Below, in pieces: positions 9,615 through 49,349 of a stretch of DNA of 64,000 bases (position 1 is the first letter of the stretch; every line of letters begins with the position of its first letter). The DNA is from Ascidiella aspersa (taxonomy: Eukaryota): positions 29,450,001 to 29,514,000 of the forward strand of contig OZ004608.1 of assembly GCA_963924565.1 (NCBI GenBank), written 5' to 3'. The position numbers and the translations under genes were made by a program. The notes below the pieces were generated by a model. That model saw only the letters and a program-made list of their open reading frames with translations, searched no databases and was not told the origin of the DNA.

Positions 9615-12063
9615 TCAGGTTTCATTCTCAGATTTTTCTTCAAGTTGACTCAATGTCCAGTCCAGTTTCACAAAGCTTTCAGATATGTAGTTTACCTGTG
9701 CAAAAACTGAAGGTTATAAACAAATAGCATTCAACAATTTTGATTGATGGAAATTAAATAAAAATACATACATTTAAGGAAGCACCACATGAATATTACA
9801 AAAATCAGTTTACTTGATACAAAAATATCTTGAAAATAAACTAACAGCACTTACCAATTGATTGTAGGTCGAAATTAATGTATTTAGGTCTTCAGAAATA
9901 TTATTCAGATCTCCCTGAATAAAATGTTAAATTTTTATAAAACACTGATGCCTAAAAAATTGGCAAATTTTACACAGTAAGGAATAGATTGACACTTAAG
10001 TTCAATAAAAATTAATTAGAAAATACCAGTTGTGCATGCTGAACTGTCTGCAACTTTGCAAGCTTGGGTTGATGCTTGGAAATTTCTTTAATTTTGTCAC
10101 TTTCAATGCATTTTTCCAGCTTTTTAATTTCCTCAAACTGCAATGCCATGTGTTTGATTGCATCTTCAGAAGCCAGTACAGCCTCTGTTTCGCAAATGTT
10201 GTCCATAGAAATCGCATCAACAAAGCCAGGACTCAAATATTCACAAATTGATGGAACTAAAAAAATAGAGCTCATATGTTCGGGAATTTTAAAGAGTAGC
10301 AAAACTAAGGATATTTTTTTATCCAAATTTCAGCAACAACATGGCATTTTAGCATTTAGATTACAAAATTATTTAAAATCTGCTTGCATAAAAGTATTTG
10401 ATGCACAAAGACAATAAAAAATCGTTCTAAAACAGTTTGTAACATTGTGTTACATGATTGTGAAAAGAGCTATTTAAACTCCGCATTTCGTTATTAAAAA
10501 TAAACGTTTAAGAAAGTGATAACTGTTTTCTTAAGGTTAAAGCATTTTTATGGCTTAACTGTATGCTAAACTTCTCAATTCGCTTTGGGCTTTATTACAT
10601 CAATGTTTGCCTTAACAATATTGTAAATCTTTAAGAAATTTTTATGCCTACTCAGATTTGAGCTTTTTCCTCAGTTAAATAATTACTAAATCATTATTGT
10701 TGGTTTAGGCTGCAGACTTAGGAACAATTAAGTATTATTATATATTCTTCCGGCTTGTCATTTTTTTATTACGGAGTCAATAATTTCAACCCATAAATGT
10801 AGGAAGTTTACAAGACTAGGATTTTGGATGTGGAATGTTCGGTAATAGGTTTAGCCTCCCAGTCGTGAAATGTAATATATTACTACTAGTTTGTAAACTA
10901 AATCTCTAGCCGTGTATCTAATTTTTACATATATGAAAAATACGGATTGTGTACTCACACTTAAAATTAAAAAAATTGAATACAGGTTGCTGGTTATATA
11001 GCCTCTTCCTTTTATTTAATAAAACTAACCTCGCTTAAATATTTGGTTAAACCGTTCCCTTCTGGAGGCAAAAGTTGTTAATGTTTCATCAACCACCTTT
11101 AACGTCTTTAATATCTAAAATATATTTAAAAAAGGGTTGTTAGCAACTAAGTTCCACCAAAAATTTAACTACTGGTCAGTATTTACCAGTGTTGTAAACA
11201 AGTCATTGAAAAATGTGCCAGTCAAGTTGTTAGTAAAATAACTAAAGTCCAAGTCAAGTCTTTTTGAATAAATAACAAGTCCCAATCCAAGTCATCAGTT
11301 GCGCAAGTCAAGTCATAATTAGAGCAAGCCAACTTCAAGTCACACCCTTGTCATAAATATAAAGCGGTAAACCATTAAAATTGTTTAAAAAAGTCATATG
11401 ATTATAAGAAATAACTAAACAAAAAGAACAACGCAACATACAGCTAGAAAATTGGGCGCTGGTCTAGAATCCTACCACAACGAAACACCATTTGGGTTAG
11501 GGTGCGGGTTAGCGTTTGGGTTAAGGTGGGTCAAGTATTATTATTAAACAAAGAATATAATAATACTTGACCCACCCACACCCAAACGCTAACCTGCACC
11601 CTAACTCAAATTTTGTGCGTTGATTTTAGAACTGTGGTAGGATTCTAGACCAGCGCCGAAAATTGTTGTGCAAAAATTTGGATAAATAGCTCAATTTTAT
11701 AGAAAAATACCTGAAGAAAACACTTTATTTCAACTCAAGTCATTCTTTCAAAGGGCTTAAGTCAAGTCAAGTCATTTGTCCGAAAGACTCTTGAAGTCTA
11801 GTCATTTTGCTGTAATGACTTAAGTCAAGTCATTTTAAAAGAGTGACTTAAGTCAGTTCATTGACTCAAATCACTACAACGCTGGTATTTACCTTCAAAA
11901 ATTTACACGTTTATACTAAAAAACATATTGGAAATATTGGCATATTGGAAGTATGTTAAAACAACATAACGCGAACCTTTCCGTTGTCACCATCGTGAGC
12001 TAAAACTTTGCTTTCCAAAGTTGCGATTCGTTCCTCCAAATCTAATAACATCTGTTCGTCCAT
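9615..12063 (-). CDS. DCTN3: Dynactin subunit 3 (p22/p24), 180 aa, 5 coding exons
   Basis: Exons 12063-11977, 11114-11030, 10256-10027, 9914-9855 and 9695-9615 splice in frame: MDEQMLLDLEERIATLESKV...SRRERFNQIFKR...YLSPGFVDAI...YNQLVNYISESFVKLDWTLSQLE. This is colinear with DCTN3 (LQARVEELE..SKRERVK..YLDPEYIDRI..YNK..LSKQFVQWDELLCQLE). Confidence 0.88.
11187..11884. mobile_element. hAT-type MITE (family A, AAGTC-rich), interrupted by a nested element
   Basis: TIRs CAGTGTTGTA...TACAACGCTG; perfect 8-bp TSD GTATTTAC (11179-11186 and 11885-11892); many subterminal AAGTC repeats. Confidence 0.9.
11455..11657. mobile_element. Fold-back MITE nested inside the family A MITE
   Basis: 25-bp perfect TIR GGCGCTGGTCTAGAATCCTACCACA, near-palindromic over the whole length; perfect 8-bp TSD GAAAATTG (11447-11454 and 11658-11665). 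Confidence 0.9.
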
Positions 12064-12787
12064 TGCTGTTCAAAAAATATATCACAATACCGGTACACTT
12101 AAACTCTGTTATTTTGCTTTGCCATAAAAATATTGGAGGCGTTATTCGTCACGCATGAGCTGTTATGATGCACTGCCTTTCTATTTTTCTTGGTATTTAA
12201 CAGAAAATTTGTCAAGAAGTTACGCATATTGCCCCAAAATAAGCTAACCATTCGCATTTGTATAGGGCGATTTAATTTGAAACATATAAATAAAGCTTTA
12301 TTGATCTAGTATTTTAAACATTTGCGTTATTCGTATATAAGTTGTCGTCGAAAATCAATAAAAAAACAAGGGCCACAAACAACATTTTGCTTTATTTCAG
12401 CTATTAGTTTTGCTAGCACACCAAGAAAAGCTCTTCGAATTCCATATTTTCTGAATTGTATAACAAAATTGGTATCGATAATGAGGCCCGTTTATCTTAT
12501 TAACCAAGTAACTCTGTTTCCCCGGGATAACAATTTTAATTACACGCCAATAGTAATAGTGAATATTTAAAGTACACAATTTTAATTATACAATTTAAAA
12601 TTAATAGGTAGCCATAAACATTACTGCATAAAACATAGAAAATTTGCACATCAAGTTGTTACACATTTTTGACGATTTTCCGCTAGTAAGCAGTAAAGAT
12701 CTAAAACCAAGTGACAACACTATTTTGACGTTACTGGTCTAAATGGTGTTCCAGTTTAATTTTTCATTTTCATTCACTTTTTGGGTC

Positions 12788-13333
12788 CGTTCCGAAGTGG
12801 TGTATCGACTGCGGTGCAGCTGCAACCAGACATACATCAACCAAACGCAACGCAACCTAAAGGCGAGTATAAAAGAACATCAGACATCACCTAAATCGGA
12901 AGTTTGTGCTCATTTGCTCGCCAATCCTACACATAAGGTTAATTTCAACAAACCGGAAATATTGGGTTCACGGAATGACAAATATCGTCTATTTTTGCTG
13001 AAGTCTTTGATGATCCAACATCACAAACCAGAACTTAATATCGATACAACCTCGATACCTTTATATATTTTTAATACCTAGCGGTACGCACTGACCCAAA
13101 GGCCTACATCGCCATTTTTCGTTGCTATGTTTTGTCCTTTTTTCCTTTCTTTTTATGTTTTATCGCTTTTATCTTCACTTGATTTTTACCCTGATGATGG
13201 CATGAGTTATTGCTGAAACGTCTGTTAATTACTAAATGCCGATTTTATCGAACATTATGGCTTTGATATTTTTATTGAAGTTACTGAAAAAAAACGTATA
13301 TTGTGTTCCAACGTTCCGAAGTGTTGTATGACT
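12788..13333 (+). mobile_element. Penelope-like retroelement remnant: decayed GIY-YIG endonuclease, 3' region and hammerhead motif
   Basis: ORF 12743-13081 contains VVYRLRCSCNQTYINQTQRNL..IKEH..S.V..H..H..IL..PELN, the PLE GIY-YIG pattern with substitutions at conserved positions (YIG>YIN, R>S, E>K). A hammerhead core follows at ~13191. Confidence 0.82.
13185..13228 (+). ncRNA. Minimal type I hammerhead ribozyme motif (PLE-associated), probably decayed
   Basis: tttacc-CTGATGA-T-GGCA tgagttat TGCT-GAAAC-GTC-tgttaa: conserved core, stem II and palindromic ACGT stem III; stem I is imperfect. Confidence 0.7.
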
Positions 13334-15016: not shown

Positions 15017-18000
15017 TCACTTGCAACGGTGTACCTTGACCGTGTCTTCGCACATTTCGCAACGCACCGAACAGCACCACTGGAATCGGCAGTTGCACTT
15101 TCTCTTGACCTGCTTCACCTTGGTCTTGTAGCCACGACCGCAGCACATCAAGCCGCAGCCGTCATCACCGGTCGAGTCTGCGTTGCACAGGCGACCGCGC
15201 GTACCGCTTACGCCGGTCTTCTTGTTGCGGAGGCAGTAGTCGGGCGAAGACTCTAGGAAGATGAGGCTGCTGGCGCCGGCTTGCTCGGACTGCTTGCGCG
15301 GGATGATCTTGCCCCGACGCGTCACTCGCGACTCGACGGCGCGCTTGTACTTTTGCTTGAGGGTGTTGCCGATCTCGCGGAAAGAGGGGATCTGCATCCA
15401 GCAGGTGCGCACGCTGCACGAGCCCGAAACGCCGTGGCAGTTGCACTTGGGGCGACTCGAGTGGACGGCCACCTATGGAGAAGAAGGAAGAGTTTAGAAC
15501 TTTGAAACGCGAGGTTTGGTTTAAAAAACAAGACTATTTAAAAGCTAAAAATATAGTTAGCTCCACCAGAGATATCGCTCTTCTGGTGTAAACGAAGTAC
15601 AAACTGACGTTCGGCCGCAGATACCAGCTGGACCTCATCAGGGTTAATAGTTTATACTTCGTTTACACCAGAAGTGAATTTGCTCAGCTATTTAGGAAAG
15701 AGGTTAAACCGCCGTTACTCCTTGGAGCGTCTTAAGAAAATTAGGGCACGGTTGCGAATAATTAGGGTTTTTTCAAACGGTTTTCTGCTAGGAACAATAC
15801 TCGATGCAATCGCTTGGGTTATGCACAGCGCCCGGAAGGGCCAGTCGCAAACAGAGGCCGCCATTGTTGTGGGAGTTTACACGATTTCAAAGCGGCCCGT
15901 TCGAGATGGCATCGCGGCGCTATTAGCCTGTGAAGATAAACCACCGGTCCCTTTGGCGTTCGCGATTCCTACACAGATCGAAAGGAGCCATTTGCGCCGC
16001 GAGACGGAGCGTCTATGTCGCGCGGGCTGTACATCATGTGCAAGAGCGTCGATCGCTATCGCAATTTCCCGATACTGGAATCTTATCATCGGCAACACGA
16101 GATTAGGCCGACACTGGATACGCGGTGTACAGGGCGGATTCGGCTACGTAATGCCCGCGAATAGCAGGAAAGTCGATTTCGGGCCGAATGCCAGGCGGTT
16201 TGGGTGAATGTCAAATCGTTTTGGGTTACGCTTTAACGCGGATCGGACAAAAAGGTCGCCAACAATTACGACCCTTGGGTTACTGTTAAACTGCGGCTTC
16301 GGGTGACCGAATGAGATTTTCTCCACCCTTTTCGGGTGACCGAAAGAGATTTTCTCCACGGCGTTTGCTGCAAGAAATCGATAAACGATTCGGGGAGCAG
16401 AGTTACGATAAATCGCCCTGGTCTCCACTTGAAACAAGTAGGAGATGATGAAAAAGCGATTGTCTATCGATTTTTGCCTTTCGCGGATTTAAGTCAGTTT
16501 TTGATTAAGCGATAGCTCGAAAATCTAAATCAACGAGGACATAAAAATCAATCGGTGAGGGCTTAAATTTCCGAATTTTCCGCGCAACATTCCCCAAATT
16601 GAAACGCCTGAACCCAACCTGGAAACGCTAAACTTTTAAGCTCATTGGAATGGTGAGTTTTCACCGACTGAAGAAGATAAAAAGTCGCCCTTATCTGTAA
16701 AGAGTTTTATCGCGACTTGGCGCGGGTGCTATTCGTACGATGAGAGAGCGCGTCGGACATTTAGGCTCATTCGCGATCCCGGGGCGATAGACCAGACTCC
16801 TTTCAAACAACGCCGCTAATTGTTTCCGCCGCGACCTATACACAGAGTTTTCCAAAATATCGCCTCGGTCCCACTCATCGGCGAGGCGATAGGCGAACCA
16901 GATAAAAGGCACAAGTCTCTTATTGCGATCGCTATCGGGCGTCGTCTTTTCCAGGGCCGCGGCGATTTGCAGATTAAAACACAGCCAAGAAATGACGTGA
17001 TGTGCTAAAGCGGCGCGGCCTTTTCGCTTCGACGGAATATACGTTGTTTTAAGGGAGAAACGCGCGGCCCGAACTTGGCCCTCGAATCGGTTTGTTGTGA
17101 AAACGTAGCGGGCGCGTGTACTCAATGCCGCGATAGCAATGCTGCACGCGGGATAGGCTGAATATATTGAAAGCGCCATCGATCAAGGCGGCGGATTGGT
17201 GTGTATGGAGCACTAGAACAGTGACTTACCAGTCGACCGACTTCGTTGTTGTGCAGGTTCATCACTTTGCGAGATCGGTCCTTCTTCTTTCGTGGCGAAA
17301 TGTCGCGCTCCTTGGCGTCAATAAACTCGCGCGCGAAGCCGTACGCGTACACTGTGTTGTCGCCGCAGCCGCCCCAGTTCTGTTGCGAAAAAAAATGTAT
17401 GGTTGTAATGAAGGAAAATAGGATTTAGCTCATAGAAAAGTAATAAGTAAAACAAACCGCATTTTATCACATTATTTTAGTCTCGAAAAACGCAGCGTTT
17501 TAACAAAAAGAACCCGGTTTTTACTTAGATAAGAGTTACAAAGTTCGTGCTTTAACGAGGTTAACCGCCAGTCCATTCGCGAAGAAATATAGTTTTTATG
17601 AAATAAAAAAAATAGTATTTATAGATTACAAAAACATTAAGTATTTTATATCTTAATTTTCTTTCAGTCGCAAATAAGCCAGAGAGTTTTACAATGTGAA
17701 ATGTCATTAAATGGCGGATTTTATTATTGCTGATTAAATTTCGACGGTTTAATCGGCGTAACGTTTTTAACATTAATTAACTCTTTTTCGGTTTGTCGGT
17801 CGTTTAGCGAAACGAAATTACGGCGAAATTGGCTCGAAATATGTTTTAATTAATCCGCCAAGGTAAAGAACGGTTTCTATTGCGCTAGGCGCTTTGACAG
17901 CTTCAAGTATTTCCTAAACCGCCGCCTCGAATAACTTTTCAGTGATTCGCATATAATCTATACGCGCGCCGGCCTAATGACACGGTTATGCATCCGGCGG

Positions 18001-34677: not shown

Positions 34678-37157
34678 CTAACTATACTTAAATCCGGAAA
34701 TTCAACTACCATAACTTTGTGTTTATAAAAAAAGGTACAACTCTTAAAATTTGAAATATATTTATCAAACAAACGAAATAGCCATATACTGTACTCAGTA
34801 ACATATTTTAGGCGGCTTGACCACTTCGTATATGTAAGGGATCTCCGCGTAGAAAACGAAATGTAAATGGAAGTTTTTGCTTAGAACAAGGTAAGTTTTA
34901 CCTGGTATTATTAAGAAGTCTTAAGATTCAATATTGACGACCCATTTTCTTTGCTTTGGCCAAATCATTTGCGCCACACGTTTAATAAGTACACCGATCG
35001 TATCGCGTTGTTTTGTTGCGAGCAATTTCGTAATTTGCAGGAGCATCAAGCCGCCCGCTGCTTGTATAAGCGACATTTCACATCGACACGCTATTTGCCA
35101 ACGATATCTGTCTGCCGGAACAGTCATGGTTTCGAAAAGCTAAACCAGCTTTACTTTTCCACCGAGACGCGATCTCTTTGTTTATCGCGGGACGATAGGC
35201 GTATTGACGACGACAGAGGCTGACGTGTTTACCGTTGCCGACAGAATCCACCTAATACATTTAAAAGGGGTCACATAAGCGGTGACTTACTCACTGTACC
35301 AACAGAATTCGGGGTGCTCGATAGTTCCTATAAGAAGCACGGCTGTTACATTTTCTACCCATTGCTTTTTTCACAACCAAAATCAGTTAGCAATTTTTTA
35401 GGGATGGATATTTAAAATTTGACCAAGTAAAGCATATTTCAGTTAACTTACGTGCATATATGCATATTGATGCAATTTATGAGCAGAGTCCAATTCAAAA
35501 TTTAAACACTGCTGGTCTTTTTCGCAAACGAGAAAAAAATTGACCATAATGCAGTTCCTTATTATTACGTCCCAGTGTGCATTGTGCGCTCTTTGATTTT
35601 GACTGATAAAGTTTTCATGGGAGGCTTTAATTTTGAACACCGGTTAAAGGGGACCATGGGATGACAAAGATTGCAAACCCTTGTTTAAAGGACCATTCAT
35701 ACGGCTGCACTGTAAATTTTCCAAAGGGCCATCAGCAGACGTCAAACATTTACATCGGACCTAGGTAAGGTTCAGCAAATCAGACACAACACGCGTTGTT
35801 GGGAACATCAGAGGAACGCACGCGAGCCGGCATCGACACATAATAGGCCTAATTTTGCCATTTCGCGAAGCGGGCAATCGATTGCCGAAGCGGTTCGGCG
35901 AAGGTCCGGCTTGGAATGTTGTTTTCGACCTTTGTGACGGCCGAGGTTACGAATCAAAGGGTCGCATCATCAAAGTGTCTTTACCTATAAGTCGAGGCAA
36001 TTTCATTTCGGACTTTAAAATGGTTGGTAATTGCGAAACGCGCAAGAAAAATTGCTGATGAATTAGTAAACAGAAATGGCACACTTTCTCGAAAATGCAT
36101 GTGATGGTATGACAATTGGCGGGTCTGTAAAACCTAATCAAAAACAAAAAGGCATAAAAAAACATTCACTGAAGAAGTAATCAGAATTTTCTTTCGAATA
36201 ACAGAATCTGCGTGAATCCGAATGGTGAAAAACAAACGATTCTGGTTGCACATTATCATGATGATTCTTTTAAGAGCGAAATATATTTATCATTTAACAT
36301 CTAAACAGTCTGATTTTCGGTTTACTAAGTTCTGTACTTAATTTAATCTTTACTGAAGGAAGCTTGTAAAACTATTCAGAAACAAGCGCATTTCCAATGC
36401 AAATATTTTGTTCAGTAAGAAAACTGCGTACATAGGATTCCCCATTTATAGAAAGGAATACACTAACAAGCTTTAGGTATCTCGGATAATAGCGTTTTGC
36501 CTAATGCTGAAAAACTCTGGCGGATGCGAAAGGAGATAAAATAGCGCACAAAAACATCGCCCCTACGATAACAAACTTGTGGCGAAAATCATACGCTAAG
36601 CGGCATTTCATTTCAGTGGCACTAAACGAGCGTGCCAAAAACACGGCCCTGTCGTGCTATCGTATAGTTGCCTCGATTTCATGCCTCGTTCCGCGTTGAA
36701 ACCACACTTTGCACTCTTGCCTCGGTAAATCCTTAAAATAGGCCGCCAACCGAAAGAGCGATCTCTTTTTGGAAATCCGTGTTAAGAACTTTTATTTTTA
36801 GAGAAAATCCAGAATACCTTTTTACTTGAAAGCGTAAACGAATTAAAATGACTGACTGTGAACTTGGTGTATAGCAGGAAAGTAGGCTCTCGTGGGTTTT
36901 AGAATATTATGCCCTCGAACGAAAAATAAACAAGAAAATATGTAAACAAAAATATTATAAACCGGAAAGTTTAAACGACACTTATAGCGATAACTTATAC
37001 CAAAAATAATTGGCCAAAGGTTATCTTAAAATCACCCAAGAAATTTCCTATTGCTTTTTGCCAGCTGACCACTCATATTGACAAGAACAACTTTAAATGG
37101 CCTATTTCACCAGCCGTTCGAAAACAACCCTTTTACTGCCTTATTTTTGTACCCTTA

Positions 37158-37264
37158 AACCAAGTGTAAACATAAATTCAACCAAGTGTAAACATAAATT
37201 CAACCAAGTGTAAACATAAATTAAACTAGGTGTAAACATAGCGGAAACCAAGTGTAAACGTAAA
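37158..37264. repeat. 22-bp minisatellite, ~5 copies
   Basis: Unit AACCAAGTGTAAACATAAATTC; first copies identical, later copies diverged. Confidence 0.9.
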
Positions 37265-38594
37265 GCCAATGCAAACGAGCATGTAAAATGGTCAAGGTTT
37301 GTTATATTCAGCCGAAACAAGGCGGAAAATACAGATGGGCGCTTCTGGAAGAGGCCACCTTAAATGATCACTATAATGTGCAGCGATGATGTGATAAAGT
37401 ACTCAAGAGTCTCCTACGTTCCTTCCAATGATCACAATGGGACCCAGTCGTAATTGTCGGCCTCGTTTCCTCCATGCATTCACCCATGCGATGCGTAGCC
37501 GCAATTAAATCTTACAAAACCAGCCCGAAATAGCAGCGCAATTACACGGTTTAACAAATCGGATCTCTTCTCAAGCTGTTCTGCTGCTGGTTGCGTCTCT
37601 GCCTAAGGGTTAAATATTCATGCCATTCTTGAAAATAGAGTTTGGCAGTGACTTAACAATAGTTTCACTTCCGCTCCACAGATGTCTGTTAAATATTTTT
37701 ATCATTTGCATGACCCGGAGAGAATATAACTTGACTTTTACTAAAGCTTCATTTTATTAAATGCGTTAGGTTAGGCTAACTTAAAATACTTAAACAAACG
37801 CATACGACTTTTTAGTTCAGTTTGGATAATACCGTAATTTCAAAGCTCACTAATTTTAAATGTTTCATCTGAAAACCTTGATATATTTCAACTATAAGAG
37901 ATAACAACAAAAACTCCAAAATCTTTTGCATTAAACAAGCAGTGAAAATAGGTTGAATAAAAAAATGAACAGTTACCCGTTAAACGATTTACATAATGGA
38001 ACGACCAAACGCAGAGAAGATGGATCAGTTTAAAACGTCCAACCACTTCTTAAGTTCAGATCCAGAAAAAAGTACATAGCATTTTGTTAAAATTAATGCT
38101 TGCGAAAAGCCTAAAAATAGCCAAGGAAGGCGAACGATGGCTAACACGTTGCTGCTTTCTATGTGGCAAGTAAACACGATCATCACTGATGAGTTTTAAA
38201 CTGCCGCGATAGCGATCTCGCGATCGTAAGTATATTGCCTAATGCGCGTGTGATTTCTTTTGTTTAGGCCACCGTGGGTATCTTGCCACGGTCGTGCATC
38301 TAGGATCTGGCCCCGAATCAGGACGTGGGCCGTAAATTGCACACGGACCGACAAGATCACAGGACGCGCCGAAAATGTTTTCGCTGTTTGTTCAACCCCG
38401 GCGATTTTAAATTCCAATATTTTGCCTCAGCGGAAAATTCATCTGAAAAATCGATCTCCCTAAAACTACTATACACACGGAGAATACACATAGGTAAAAC
38501 ACCTCCTATTTTTAGGACCTATGCAAAACCAAACCGCTCTCTGCCGAGCAATTAGCAGCACTTTACGAGTTATGAAAAGTTTGTCGGTGATCAC

Positions 38595-38932
38595 CAGTGT
38601 TGTAATGATTTAAGTCAAGTCTTTTGAACAAATGACTTGGTATAAAATGAGGAGTTTTCATTGAGCATTATTCGTTATAAAATTGGGTTATTTACGTTTT
38701 GCACTAAAAAAAGGTTTTGTGTTATTTTTTAGTTGAGTTATTGTTCATAATCGGACTAGTTTACTAATTTTAAAAGTATAACGTTTAAAGGACTTGACTT
38801 AAAAATAATTGATCTATGACTTGCTGGGACTTCACTTGTTATTTACTAAAAAGGACTTGACTTGGACTGAAGTTTTTTACAATGACTTGACTGGGACTTT
38901 AGTCATTTTAAAATGACTTGATTACAACACTG
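38595..38932. mobile_element. hAT-type MITE (family A)
   Basis: TIRs CAGTGTTGTAAT...ATTACAACACTG; perfect TSD GTGATCAC; GACTT repeats. Confidence 0.9.
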
Positions 38933-41900
38933 GTGATCACAGTTATACTCATCTCTGTTATAAGCACATAATAGAAAAATTGGTGGACCACATTTAACTT
39001 GATAGACACAGCTCTCAAATCGAATCTTAAAATATTGCGAAAACCTTTTAACGAAAACAATTAGACGGTCACCTCTTTGGCAAACTTAAAGCTTCCTGGC
39101 AAACATAAGGGTAGTGTGTTGATAAGCGTTGATAAAATCAGAGATATGGGCGAATTCGAAGATATGGTCGCATATTGTGAGTGTCAAGTCACGACTCATA
39201 GAAGTTTTGAAAAGCAAAAAAGAGGTCCGCCAACGCTTCTATATACAACAGACATTTCCATTTGTGACAAATTTTATTTAAATCGTGCTTTTTTTTATGA
39301 AAGGCATTTAAAGCATTTTTAAATTAGAGAATTTTATAAATCGGCACACCAGAAATACAGTATTTGAAAGAGCTATATAAATCGTTCAGTTATTTGAAAC
39401 GTCAGTTTTGACTCCTACGTTACAGAGTACTTCTATCATTTAGGTATATAAGGCAGTACTGTATATAGTGTCAATTTTTCGCCTTAAGTGCACTTAAGTA
39501 TTTTGGGCAAATGATTTGACTTTGACTTTACTCATTGAGGGAAACGATTTGACTTAAACTTGAGTGAATTTATTTAGATTTGTTTTCTTCAGAAAATAAG
39601 GTAATTTATCTCAACCTTCGCACGGAAAACATTCTTTGAGTTTTTCGTGTTTAATCTTTAATGTGGCTTATCTTTGAACAGTTTACCAAGTTTATTTGTT
39701 TTTGAAATAAATGTAATTTTCTCGGAATTAACTTGGGCAGTGGAGACGTGGACTGGGATTTATCTTGGACTTAAGTTGTTCAACAATTGTCCTGAGCGAG
39801 ATTTCAGTCATAAATGTCTTGTTCGCAACACAAGCACAGGGCAAGCTAGTTTTGCTTTGAGGCCAGAAATAAAAACGCAGGTTGAACGTAACAAATCGCA
39901 ACTTTTCTACCCTTGGACAACCTACACGACCAGGCATGCCACGTATCAATGTAAAACACGCAGCACTTTAATATTTGGCAAAGTATTTGCGGTTTGGCAG
40001 GGGACGCTATATACCCCGACCCCGACAATCATCCCTTTGTCGCGCCAAACCTCGGAATGCGTTGATCGTCGCGAAGTTCCGAGGCCATGGTCGTTTATTT
40101 CGGCTCTCAAGGTCGCGCGGCTAAAAATATCGCGCGGTTCGACGTCATCGTACAAATTACCAGTGATGTGCTCTCGGATTTTTGACACGAAGGCTATTAC
40201 GTAGCCGCGAAACTCGCAATCAAGACCACGGCTGTCATGGAGCTGGGGCGAGGCCGTATAGTTGGGCCAGGGCGGTAGTTAGCAGGCGTTAACTGCCTTC
40301 GCACTCCACCTGGGCCTTTGTGCAGACCTGGGTCCTTCAGTGGGAATTTTTCAATCTCTCGCCCTCGTCTTGTCGTTATCCACTCGACAGCACCAAGGCA
40401 TTAGACACGTAAAGCCGTAATGAAATAGATAGATAACGTTAATTGGCAGCTATATGAGAGTACGGGTTGCTACAATGGGGCAAAGCACATCTTTATGAAA
40501 AAAACAAAGGCCAGGGGTCTGCATGAACACATTCCTTGACTGAAAACTACGTATAGTCTGTTATTGATGGAAATAACAAGGACGCAAACAACACCTAAAT
40601 ACGTCAGCGGTTCTTAAAATGATCTTATAACGACGAATCACTGCAAGTAATATCACCAAATTGCACACCACAAGTAAATTTGCTTGAAAATCAACTTGCA
40701 AACTGTTTCAGATCACTTTTGCGAAACGTAACGAATTGAGCTGTATTTAAAACGAAAGGAGCTGTAATAAAACTACCTAACACATGCCTGCATTTTAAGA
40801 TACAACTATATTCAAACATAGAAAAATACCTCTCACTAAAGCATACAGTTCATTACAAAATTTACACTGTGTTGAACAAAACTAATAACTTGAGTTTGTA
40901 AACAACATCTTAAAGTCTCAATTGAACAGAGAACTGATATCAGGTGAAATATACACTCGAATTTAAACTTGGCTGATTTAAATAATTTACTATTCGCTAT
41001 GATTTAGTTTCAACATCTACTAGAATTGAAGCAAAGGCACGTTCTGCATTTAGGGAAATTCATCCCATATCCCACGCTTAGCACACACAAAATCCTATCT
41101 ACCTTGACAAACACTGATATTTACTGCGGCTATTGGAACAGTTCGCACCACGTTCTGTAATGGATTTATGCCAAATAAATCAACGGATTTTCCTCACCAA
41201 ATTCTATTGATCCAGCCAAGAAACACGTGCAACATCGCGTGAGGTATAAGGCTGGATGACGTGGCTGGTTTTCGCCCGGCAGCACCTGTTCCCAAATTGG
41301 ACGCAAACAACCGCTTTTTCGCCGTAACCGCCTTTAGATCTGACACCGAAAGTTGCAGGATCAAAGGCCTGAGAGTACAGCACGCGCGCGTATATGTATA
41401 CCGCTTGAAAACGTGTGGCGGTCATTTTTGCTTTATCGCCTTAAAAACAGTCGGAGCAAAGCCGAAGCGCCATGAGCGAGACTTCAATCGGCGATCGTCC
41501 ATCAGCCGCGACGCAAATCTCGGAGCGGCGCGAGGATTACGACAAGGCGACAAACCGAGTCTGATTCGTCTAAATCAGCTCGCCTTTCGGGCGTCGGCGT
41601 TTCGCGGAAAGGACGCGTGTCGCGAGCAAAAGCAAAATCCCCGGCACGCGCGTTTTCTAGACTTTTCTAAATCGGGAGAAAGGTAACGCGGCCAATATGT
41701 ACAAGTATACATCGGGGTCTGCACACGGTCGGGTCGTCAGTATAGGGCGAATTGTAACATATGGAAGCGTGTTCACCCGGGGGCTACACACGGGTGGATC
41801 GTCAATAGGGCGTGCTTTCATAGACTCTTAACAACTTGTGCCGCCCTATGATAACGTCTCGGAAAAAAATAGTCTCAGAGTCACAAGGGGGTTTTCCAAG

Positions 41901-44758: not shown

Positions 44759-47332
44759 ACCTAGTAAGCTCGTCTCGTCGTTTCCTGTTAGGCGAGCGAA
44801 TGGCATCGGAACCCTTGCATTTAAAGAAAGCAAAAACGCCGCAACAATGTCTAGAATTCCAGCGTTTCTGCGTGGCGGCCCAATTACGCCTGCCATCGAA
44901 TCGATCAGGCGTCGCTCATAATACTAGAAGCCTGCACTGCCGTACAGCACTATACACGACAAACCATTAAAATCGAGACTGTGGAAAACGTCAACCCGTC
45001 AGCGCGGCGCTGTCTGAAAGCATGGGACGGCCAAATGTGCTTGTTGTAGACACAAGCGCGCCGCACTCCATGGCCCATCTGGCCCGCGCGGGACCGTGCC
45101 TAATCGACTGCGACCCCTTATACGAGATCCGACTCCGGGCCGCACGCCCCCGTCCGAAAAATAAACGCAAAAAACACCCCGTGAAACGCTTCTATGCCTG
45201 GAACGCGGAAAATTCGTCCACAGAAAGCCAGACACCTGCTACAATGGAGCGAAACGATAACCGTTGCGCGATTTTGCGTGTAAATGCGCAACGGCGATGG
45301 TTGTAAAGCGAACGCGATACAACCAGACAAGCGCGACACCGTTTCGAGGTGTCGCCAAGCCGGAATTCGCGACCCACAATGGCGCGAAGCTTGTAAAACA
45401 CGGACTGGTCTATAGTGCTGCATCGTCCGGGTCCTAACCGTAGGTCACCGGTCGGAAACCGTCAAACTATATCCCGCGGCACTGTGTTCGTGGAGTGTAT
45501 TTTCGGCCGCGAGTTTCGAGTTTACAGCTTACACAGACTGTCGGACAATTGCCCGACGCGCGATAACATTGCACCAACTATATATATATATTGCATGGAG
45601 TTTGAACCGTAGTTATTTATATCGGCTTAGGCGCGTTATTGTTTCGGACAAACCTGCGAGTAAACAGGTTGATCCCTGACAGTTTAGCTCTTCAACCTGA
45701 GGTATTAGCAGGTTTAATTCAACCCAAATTCCAAGAAATCCATCCCCTTCTGGCGAAGACTCATTTCGTTGTTTGACGGTAGACCACCGGGGCAGCGCAC
45801 ACTAACTAAAAAACCCTGTCCAAACCATAAAAGGCCGTATAGAAGCGCAAAAACAAAACGCCATCAGGCTTTTAAGCTGGAAATTGCAGACGACAGCGCT
45901 CCTTGTTTGAAAACACAACAGGTCTTACGCGGCAGCCGGTATATCACATTGTGACGTTGAGTCAGAGCCCTGGAGGAGATTCCGACTCTTGTGGACGGAA
46001 AAACGTGTTTTGGAAAGTCATGGGGTCGCGCTCCGGGCAAGACATCGCTTTCACTGTTTGGCCGGCTCGGAACAATCCGCTTGACGAACCAACAACAGAA
46101 AGTGACACGTTTATGTTTTGGTACAGGGCTGTGTTTTTTAGAGCCCTTTGTCAAAGGAAGAAGTGGTGCTTTATCTGAATGAGAGAGACAATAGGATCGA
46201 CAAAGACAGGAAGTAAGGATTTCCGATACTTGATATTTTATTCCGATACCGTTATACAATGTTTTGTAAAAATACCGCAAGTCAGTGTAGAAAAGTACCG
46301 CAATCGTATATCCGGCAACAAATGAAGTCATCTCTATGCTTAAAATACAGATGAAATTAAAACATTCAAGGATGCCTTTTTTAAGGTTATTCAATCAAAA
46401 TTTGCTTCAACGTTAACAAATTTAATTATTTTATAAATTTACATTTCAAAATAAAAATTGCTAAGTCGAATCACAAATCGTGACTGATATTTCCTAAATC
46501 GAATAGGCAACATGCCACCCCGGACGAGGTTACCGATTTTTCCACTTGGCGTCATGTATCGGGTTCCGATTCTAAATTATCGGACATCGTAAGGCAGAAG
46601 GGTTGAAAAATTTCCTGAAAGCTGTTTACTTGTTTCCAACCATAGGGCACACGGAAGGCACTTTAGTCATTTTAAACCACAATCCCTTTAATTTTAAGGT
46701 TAAGTTCTGGCAGAATAATCCGCTTACCAACCCAACTCCTAACATCCGCTAGTGGAGTAAAGTTTTTCGGCGCACATTCGATGCGCAGAATTGTTTTTTA
46801 GATAAGAAAAACAGGATTTTCTTGTTTTCGAGGAGGCGCGTGACGCAGACCGGCGACCCCCGGGTGCAGTGATAATTAAAAATCCGTGAGAAGTGACGTT
46901 GCGGGAAGGGGGCCGGCGTGACAGGCGTACAGCGTTAAGTAGGATTCGAGTTGGGTTTCAGCCTCACTTTGGCGATATTTGGCGTTAATTTGTTGCGCCC
47001 ATAACAGGCCGCTCATTAAGAGGAACGGCCCGGAGCGCAGCGAACCGAAAACGAAGAGTGCCTTGCAGTGCTTTGCAGTGCTTTGCTCGTCAACGCCAAA
47101 GAAGCCCTGATTGGCAAAATTCCGGCTCGAAAAAAGGGGGCAAACGCACGTGTGTACCCGTAAACAGCGCTGCTGCTGCTGCTGGCGTATCATGAAGGTC
47201 GAGACTAAAGCGGAGGTACGCGAAAGTTGGTTTGATAGATTGTCTTTTGCTTTCGTAGTTTGTCGGACCCCGACCAGCTGTACCGCCACCGTTTGAAGCT
47301 ATTTTTACATTGCAAACGTCAATGGTAAAGAA

Positions 47333-47762
47333 CAGTGTTGTAATGACTTAAGTCAATCACTGTATTCAAATTACTTGACTTGACTTAAGTATTTTGGACA
47401 AAATGACTTGACGTGGCTTACACTAGTCTTTTAGACAAAATTACTTGACTTGACTTAAATCTTTTGGACCAATGACTAGAGCTGAAATGAAATGTTTTTA
47501 TTAAGCATTTTTTATTATAAAATTGGGTTATTTATCTTAAGTTTTGCAGTCAAAAAATTAGCTTGCTATATTTTGCATTTTTTGTTATTTTTCCGTTCAG
47601 TTACTGCTCATGATCAGACTATAGTTTACCAATTTTTGGACAAAGACTTGACTTACAATTGACTTGCTCTAATTATGACTTGACTGGGACTTGACTTGTA
47701 TTTATTCCAAATGACCTGACTTGGACTTAAGTTTTTCTACAAGTGACTTGTTTACGACACTG
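47333..47762. mobile_element. hAT-type MITE (family A)
   Basis: TIRs CAGTGTTGTAA...TTACGACACTG; TSD GTAAAGAA/GTAAAGCA (7 of 8); GACTTGACTT repeats; internally similar to the copies at 38595 and 11187. Confidence 0.88.
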
Positions 47763-49349
47763 GTAAAGCACAACAGTCGTGTGTTATACTGAAGCGAAAA
47801 TATAATAAAAAGTCAAAGCACTTTATCACTCTCAATACCAACTTTTTACAAGCGGGTGAAAACTGTTTTAAACGCTTGACGCAACTTGTTTGTCGTTATC
47901 GATTGATCTCAAAGATTTTAGTAAAATTAGCTTGCTGTCTGATTGCCTTTGGTGTGCGCAGCTAACGAAGTTAAAAACCCCAATACGCGTGCTTTGTGGC
48001 ATCAAGGCAACATATAGATATGCACAAAAATAACAAAAATCTAACCACCAGTGATTTTCGTCCATTAAAAGCAGCCAACAACGTTTGGTGATACACAATA
48101 TGTTGTTTTACAGTTTTTAAAGCCCAATAATTAAACAAACATCTGAATATTAATATTGGAAACATATATTACGACATGTTTTAGCATAGGGTAAGCATGA
48201 AACATTTTGTTGATGGTTGGTGATTAGAAAATGCGCACTTCAAAGAAGTTTGAACTCTTAATCGCGATATGTCATGGGCCTATATGAAAAGCGAGCCTGA
48301 AATACCGGGGTCAAATGACAATGAGAAAACAACATTTGGGCGACTAACTTTTTCCGGGAAGAAAAGATTATTTTTGTTATAGCAATCGTATACGGCAAAG
48401 CACATCGGTGATCGCTGAAAAGCATTCCTATACAATCAACGTTACGCTCGCTCTGCGGAGAAAAAGTCTTATTAACGGCTATAGTTGCGCATAATTGGGA
48501 GCTTCGGGTTTTCGGCTGACCGAGGAATACGCGACCCTTGGCCCGCAATTTGACGAATCTATTTTCGACGGGGTATGCTAATTCAGAATTCTCATTGCGC
48601 GGTAACGGTAAAGATTGTGAGCGTCTACGATGGCAAATCACTTTTCAATTTTTTTTGGACACGACATAAACAGCTGGTTCCCCATTTTTTTTTTTTTAAG
48701 GTGCTTTTGCCACGTTTATTCCCCCCTGAAAGTTAAAAAAATTAAACTATTTAAATTGTAAGCTATATTATAGCATTTTACTACATGTTTTGCGTGTTTT
48801 ACAGGAAATAAGGATTGATACACTTGGTTTCACACGGTACAAGATATATTTCTGTTTATTTATGAAATTATTCATTTTTTTTAGCTGTTCTTATTTAACA
48901 GTCTAAATAGTTATTTGATTACAAGCAAGAATCTTTCTGCTACATTATTGGCTGTAAAAGAGATTACCTTCTTGAACAAGCGTTTCAGCTAAGGGAAAGC
49001 ATAGGGTGGAAAAATTTGGCCGGTCGTTGTACAGAGGGCACAGGTCTTGGAGAGAAGAATTCGATATTATGTGGAGCTCTCCGCAGTGCGAACGGAAACC
49101 AGGTAATTGCCGCCTATTATCGAGTCGCGAAGCTTAACATGGTCATATACGGCTTTCTGCGCATTATTTAAGCAATAGTTACTATTTAATCCTACCACTT
49201 TGAGTATCAGCTGGAGACTTTTTTTTCTCCAAACCTATGGGTTATTTTTGCCTCGTGCTGTAGACTATAAAGAGGACTGCTTAACCGGGAGTATTAGACC
49301 AGCATGTGGGTAAAAAAATCGCCAGTTGCTTTCAAAAGATGCTATAAAC

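Follow-up and report, generated by a model that had tools for sequence, protein, structure and literature searches.

The window, by which we mean the whole stretch of 64,000 nt that was analysed, contains the last coding exon of Wnt5 on its minus strand, preceded in the gene by an intron in which a long hairpin surrounds a hammerhead-like motif. In a spliced contig (run X3, depth 58.2 as against about 3 for intronic contigs), 15470 is directly adjacent to 17228, the intron having GT..AG ends, and the insertion described below is therefore placed in a spliced intron. A sequence-only reading had drawn attention to the motif, and the minus-strand sequence from 15674 to 15580 is as it was given there. 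The distance to the last-exon acceptor, which it put at about 110 nt, is 109 nt from the end of the arm when the acceptor is taken from the spliced contig. Also in agreement are the sole mismatch between the arms, which is U-G on the sense strand, and the GAAA box, which lacks one A.

Positions in the element were numbered from the first base 3' of GUC, so that +1 is 15605 in the window. C17 of GUC is 15606, and the predicted cut falls between 15606 and 15605. The two arms (15580–15605 and 15649–15674) are 26 nt each and 96% complementary, and the 95-mer folds with a z of -9.05, none of 200 shuffles being equally good. The 95-mer described earlier is real, but the element goes on beyond it to 15546. 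As judged from the alignments, it is part of a 129-nt insertion (15546–15674) derived from an autonomous Penelope-like element (PLE), here called family 1. The features of the locus are the following:

15017–15470, minus strand: last coding exon of Wnt5 (Pfam wnt, E 1.5e-56; best PDB match Wnt-5a)
15471–17227, minus strand: Wnt5 intron, GT..AG, holding the insertion in the orientation of the gene (spliced contig, run X3)
15546–15652, minus strand: forward copy, a 5'-truncated 3' pseudo-LTR (pLTR) of PLE family 1, from -47 to +77, with tail (BLAST to the intact copy L061; alignment with six copies)
15650–15674, plus strand: inverted second arm, element +2 to +26, 25/25 identical to the family (L001 1581–1605, 100%)
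15650–15652, minus strand: 3-nt microhomology AAC at the head-to-head junction, common to the forward copy and the inverted arm (alignment overlap)
15606–15641, minus strand: decayed core of a minimal type I hammerhead, CUGAUGA...GAA, C, GUC (alignment; family letters in reads of other copies)
15605, minus strand: substitution of A for the G at +1 (a family CpG), breaking the first pair of stem I and adding a 26th pair to the arms (comparison of copies)
15569–15570, minus strand: site of a 17-nt deletion (+37 to +53) that removes the ATG of the element (alignment; loose ends of family reads at 15570)
15546–15569, minus strand: PLE tail (ORF start), ending at +76/+77 in the second cluster of family 3' ends (90/237 3' ends at +70 to +84)
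13191–13222, plus strand: minimal hammerhead of PLE family 2, which served as the control family (family comparison)

Seven changes separate the window copy from the family copies in the alignment. Apart from those listed, stem II contains an additional C (15630) and has G in place of T at 15616, +6 is changed from A to G, and there is one change in the tail. The GAA at 15610–15612 is GAAA minus one A, and GAAC was found in 1 of the 93 copies examined; at +1 the same copies have G (89), A (3, the window copy included) or T (1). The decayed allele is identical in a gap-free contig from another sample (X2), while reads from other copies carry the family letters at the changed sites. In RNA run X8, of which 6% was examined, 23 reads fell on this stretch, all of them partial and with the family letters, and hence uninformative on the window copy; a contig of depth 2.5 that spans the cut but extends only 11 letters beyond it on one side was left out of the count.

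The inverted repeat had been reported as 26 bp starting exactly at the cleavage site. There are indeed 26 pairs, and the 3' arm does begin at 15605, but the 26th pair results from the altered A at +1, which faces a T contributed by the forward copy; the true arm is therefore 25 nt and its inner end lies at +2 to +5. By comparison with other copies, the "exact" match between the beginning of the arm and the cut is partly accidental. Inspection of the flanks gave no clear target-site duplication around the window copy and no empty allele was seen among the reads of X7 (depth about 5, low); the 5' boundary is therefore not fixed. The 5' flank 15675–15692 is weakly like the missing outer part of the arm (+27 to +44), and GAGCAAATTC within it also matches a variant of the family tail; both resemblances may be due to chance.

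The window contains other repeats. Nested inverted repeats with 28-nt and 60-nt arms lie at 11452–11660, are MITE-like and give weak matches to miRNA models, below the gathering score. A TGACTT-rich repeat with terminal inverted repeats, also MITE-like, is present in three copies (11182–11875, 38578–38949, and 47324–47767), and a 22-nt unit forms a tandem array at 37133–37269.

Parent family of the insertion

A search with hammerhead models had been proposed as a check, and the Rfam scan of the window gave no hammerhead match at E <= 5. The other proposed check, a search of the organism's own genome for related copies, returned 551 candidates, which rules out a chance CTGATGA. A repeated 95-nt hairpin element or retrozyme with the same ends was considered and rejected: among the 40 candidates that were scored, only the window matches positions 1–116 of the query, the others beginning at about 34. 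The hammerhead at 13191, whose context had been noted as similar, was rejected as a source because it is part of another PLE family, here called family 2.

The copies of family 1 carry an intact minimal hammerhead, of which the genome contains 138 exact 38-nt cores. They have the features of the minimal type I class, namely CUGANGA, GAAA, NUH, helices I and II, and a palindromic 15.2-16.2, whereas the window copy lacks the intact GAAA box (it has GAAC) and an intact stem I (G-to-A at +1). Upstream of the family hammerheads, pieces of a reverse transcriptase (RT) and of an endonuclease-like domain are encoded. In L061 (G000:C3:7033500-7039500), an intact full-length copy that stands after a short inverted tail piece and is likely recent, the pLTR-ORF-pLTR unit is complete, with a core on either side of the ORF at a spacing of 2633 nt. 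The frame has 790 aa, begins with the ATG at +47 and matches RVT_1 in Pfam (E 2.9e-08). Its translation also contains AVYEIPCGGC..YIGET, which we take to be the GIY-YIG endonuclease motif, and Pfam gave no GIY-YIG match on this translation at E <= 1. The linker is without a cysteine cluster, as in the Penelope/Poseidon clade according to the available text of PMC8557442.

The 3' ends of the family (n = 237) fall mainly in two clusters, with 109 at +40 to +50 and 90 at +70 to +84, a tail signature that has been traced to two internal priming sites (PMC11167929, as far as its available text goes). On the basis of the RT frame, the paired pLTR hammerheads and this signature, the parent is therefore a Penelope-like element.

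To map 5' ends, copies were collected by an exact anchor at +18 to +34 and a non-C at -37, a pattern that misses copies with C at -37 or an altered anchor. Of 191 matches, 169 were analysed; those left aside were 11 copies whose whole core was visibly displaced, together with about nine look-alike segmental duplicates, and identical keys were merged. Removal of 24 copies running through the mapped stretch and of two tandem extras at L022 (G000:C4:3802500-3802720, three tandem 73-nt units of an inverted family-1 junction piece) left 143 copies with 5' ends between -38 and +18. Almost half of these (68/143) are joined to an inverted piece of the element, with an overlap of at least 1 nt at 31 of the 68 junctions. 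The outer ends of 26 of the 31 short partner arms fall within one or other of the start clusters, as priming from both strands would produce; the available text of PMC11167929 describes both target strands as cut and extended in vitro. Among the 62 plain copies, five have an adjacent exact target-site duplication of at least 7 nt, and the breakpoints could not be refined by them. One near-full-length copy, L246/L080 (G000:C4:15921630-15924298), begins at +5 and adjoins an inverted arm (-22 to +74).

Origin of the window copy

The feature is very probably a decayed, 5'-truncated PLE insertion with an inverted second arm, whose hammerhead is predicted to be inactive and which likely has no role in Wnt5 processing. 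As such, the locus is ordinary mobile DNA. One of the two origins suggested earlier, a footprint left by the insertion of a PLE together with an inverted end, thus stands as far as the footprint is concerned; its further part, the copying of that end from ribozyme-cleaved RNA, is possible, though the inner end of the arm lies at +2 to +5 instead of exactly at +1 and the outer end (+26) is unusual, and is weighed below.

In the proposed course of events, the element protein would nick AT-rich DNA of the intron, and a cDNA of 124 nt, primed at the distal start site (+77), would stop at -47. The other strand would prime a second, short cDNA, which would end at +2 to +5 and be joined head-to-head with the first through AAC at their truncated ends, its outer part being lost at joining or later. 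Point changes and deletions would afterwards have broken the core and removed the ATG. In the pre-mRNA, the 26-bp hairpin is predicted to sequester the 3' strand of stem I from the ribozyme. The A missing from the GAAA box is an invariant position of the core in hammerhead numbering. Because this A is missing, because stem I is broken and held in the hairpin, and because intact single minimal hammerheads are reported not to cut in vitro (PMC4209133, available text), the ribozyme of the window copy is predicted to be dead.

The other origin suggested earlier, a small hairpin element with a ribozyme by which Wnt5 pre-mRNA is cut or regulated, would suit the sense orientation, the 109 nt to the acceptor, the very stable fold and the presence of the hairpin in a second sample. 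It is nevertheless highly improbable, since the core lacks the invariant A and its stem I is broken and sequestered, there is no partner ribozyme of the family within the window, the combination of arms does not recur in the 40 candidates that were scored, and splicing of the intron uses its normal acceptor. Within the preferred reading, that of a truncated insertion with an inverted arm, the outer end of the arm at +26 is atypical, none of the 31 short partner arms ending at or before +30, and because it is shorter than all of them, trimming, a later deletion or a snap-back must be added. In a snap-back, the 3' end of the first cDNA (GTT) would anneal, shifted in register, to the stem I complement within the same cDNA and be extended by 22 nt, and the position of the arm near the cut would follow from the complementarity of stem I only. 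The two strands of stem I are indeed joined by the junction microhomology, with a shift of 7 nt in register, no priming site lies at +26, and self-priming has been proposed for head-to-head PLE junctions (PMC3846280, available text); as 26 of the 31 short arms start at priming sites, it is not the main route in the family, and we regard it as rather doubtful for the window copy.

Family 5' ends around the hammerhead cut

The 5' ends of family 1 were compared with nulls for CpG decay, slope and microhomology bias. At -1 to +1 there are 15 ends among the 143, where 4.7–6.3 were expected (p 0.0003–0.002), and at -1 to +3 there are 30, where 12–16 were expected. Under a stricter test, which allowed for indels, counted each locus once and corrected for the best 4-nt window, p was 0.006–0.023. 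The upstream edge of the pile is sharp, with 2, 2, and 1 ends at -2, -3, and -4, and its largest bin is at +3 (nine ends). The excess is also present in the plain truncations (15/62, p 0.004), and inner ends at -1 to +3 were found in nine of the 31 short partner arms, a set that overlaps the anchored and anchor-less ones. At L193 (G000:C4:3969033), a perfect head-to-head palindrome is centred on the cut, both arms stopping at +1; it has look-alikes at C4:4032145 and C4:4101034, three places in total. In a non-exhaustive search of titles and abstracts we found no report of 5' ends piling at the cut, and supplements may hold such data.

The excess of ends, its sharp upstream edge, the inner ends of the partner arms and the palindrome are what would be expected if the RT had run off the 5' end of hammerhead-cleaved RNA, an addition to the preferred explanation by which the arm of the window copy would end near the cut and part of the family copies would have been made in the same manner. 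Several results speak against it. Piles at +8 (10 ends against 4–5) and +18 (eight against 3–4) also exceed the null, which is therefore imperfect. Plain truncations taken alone give p 0.14 at -1 to +1, and an independent anchor-less set has three of 24 ends at -1 to +1 and five of 24 at -1 to +3 (p about 0.1). No ORF-start piece found begins at +1 (their starts are +5, -90, -77, -20, +21, and +48), and for the Poseidon element of Anolis carolinensis, the available text of PMC11167929 describes cleavage as dispensable in vitro and gives no RNA reads ending at the cut. The pile at the cut was also not replicated in family 2, a 3' end of which, with an endonuclease-like C-terminus, the hammerhead at 13191 and a tail, lies in the window at 12743–13311 on the plus strand (772 candidates in the genome). 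From 91 matches in this family, 90 were analysed, and after 14 that run through the stretch were set aside, the 76 remaining copies have one end at -1 to +1 and three at -1 to +3, below the uniform expectations of 2.6 and 5.2; the families differ by Fisher's test with p 0.013 and 0.0006, respectively. The hammerhead of family 2 has G-U instead of G-C at 10.1-11.1 and a weak stem I, and to invoke these as reasons for the failure is an after-the-fact excuse. Many look-alike copies of family 2 share flanks and lie near contig ends.

The pile is also compatible with a stalling of the RT at the folded, uncut ribozyme, where two G-C pairs close stem I at +2/+1 before the junction. Its largest bin, +3, lies just before these pairs, and family 2, in which stem I is A-U rich, is without a pile; but there is no clear pile at the entry to stem II, which is G-C-rich (4, 5, and 5 ends at -8, -7, and -6 against about 3), and only a weak fold is predicted for the monomer (z -0.86). 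We hold such pausing to be doubtful, and the run-off addition, taken as a whole, to be no less so. For the family by itself, run-off from cleaved RNA can be put forward tentatively, with slightly better prospects, and for the arm of the window copy it is unlikely. With the same reserve as for the family, the 5' ends might record hammerhead cutting in the germ line with the 3' product as template, in which case about one tenth of the copies truncated in the 56-nt stretch, the window arm included, would be run-off cDNAs.

Relation to known elements and significance

Family 1 is like the EN+ PLEs of the Penelope/Poseidon type, as far as these are covered by the available text of PMC8557442 and PMC3846280, in its single ORF, with RT and a putative EN, between pseudo-LTRs, its heavy 5' truncation, the head-to-head inverted piece and the optional tail of 30–40 nt. 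The window copy differs from them in being only 129 nt long, non-coding and decayed, in the outer end of its arm, which is off a priming site, and in the target-site duplication, which was not found in its flanks. With the minimal hammerheads of metazoan PLEs (PMC4209133, available text), the shared features are type I, a long helix II, G10.1-C11.1, a short helix I and a palindromic ACGU in place of helix III, as well as a bulge in helix II known from the D. virilis variant; unlike these, the window copy is missing the first pair of stem I and one A of GAAA, and the available text of that report does not mention a pile of genomic 5' ends at the cut. Its layout is already known for EN+ PLEs (PMC8557442, PMC3846280), and its motif for metazoan PLEs (PMC4209133), in the text available of these reports.

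The Poseidon of A. carolinensis (PMC11167929, available text), for which no RNA ends at the cut are given, shares with family 1 a pair of internal priming sites, separated by about 35 nt, where the pLTR meets the ORF, and the capacity of both target strands to prime, but its ORF begins within stem II, 26 nt ahead of the cut, whereas the ATG of family 1 is at +47. The non-LTR retrozymes of animals (bioRxiv 10.64898/2026.07.22.740005, available text) resemble the window unit in having a hammerhead, in being non-coding and in their derivation from PLE ends; the window unit, in contrast, is without a tandem array and represents a single truncation product derived from an autonomous family.

In the available text of PMC8557442, the function of the minimal hammerheads of PLEs is called unclear. 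The pile of 5' ends in family 1 bears on the question of whether the minimal hammerheads of animal PLEs cut in vivo, and any PLE family can be tested cheaply by counting the 5' ends of its genomic copies; here the outcome was negative in family 2 and positive in family 1.
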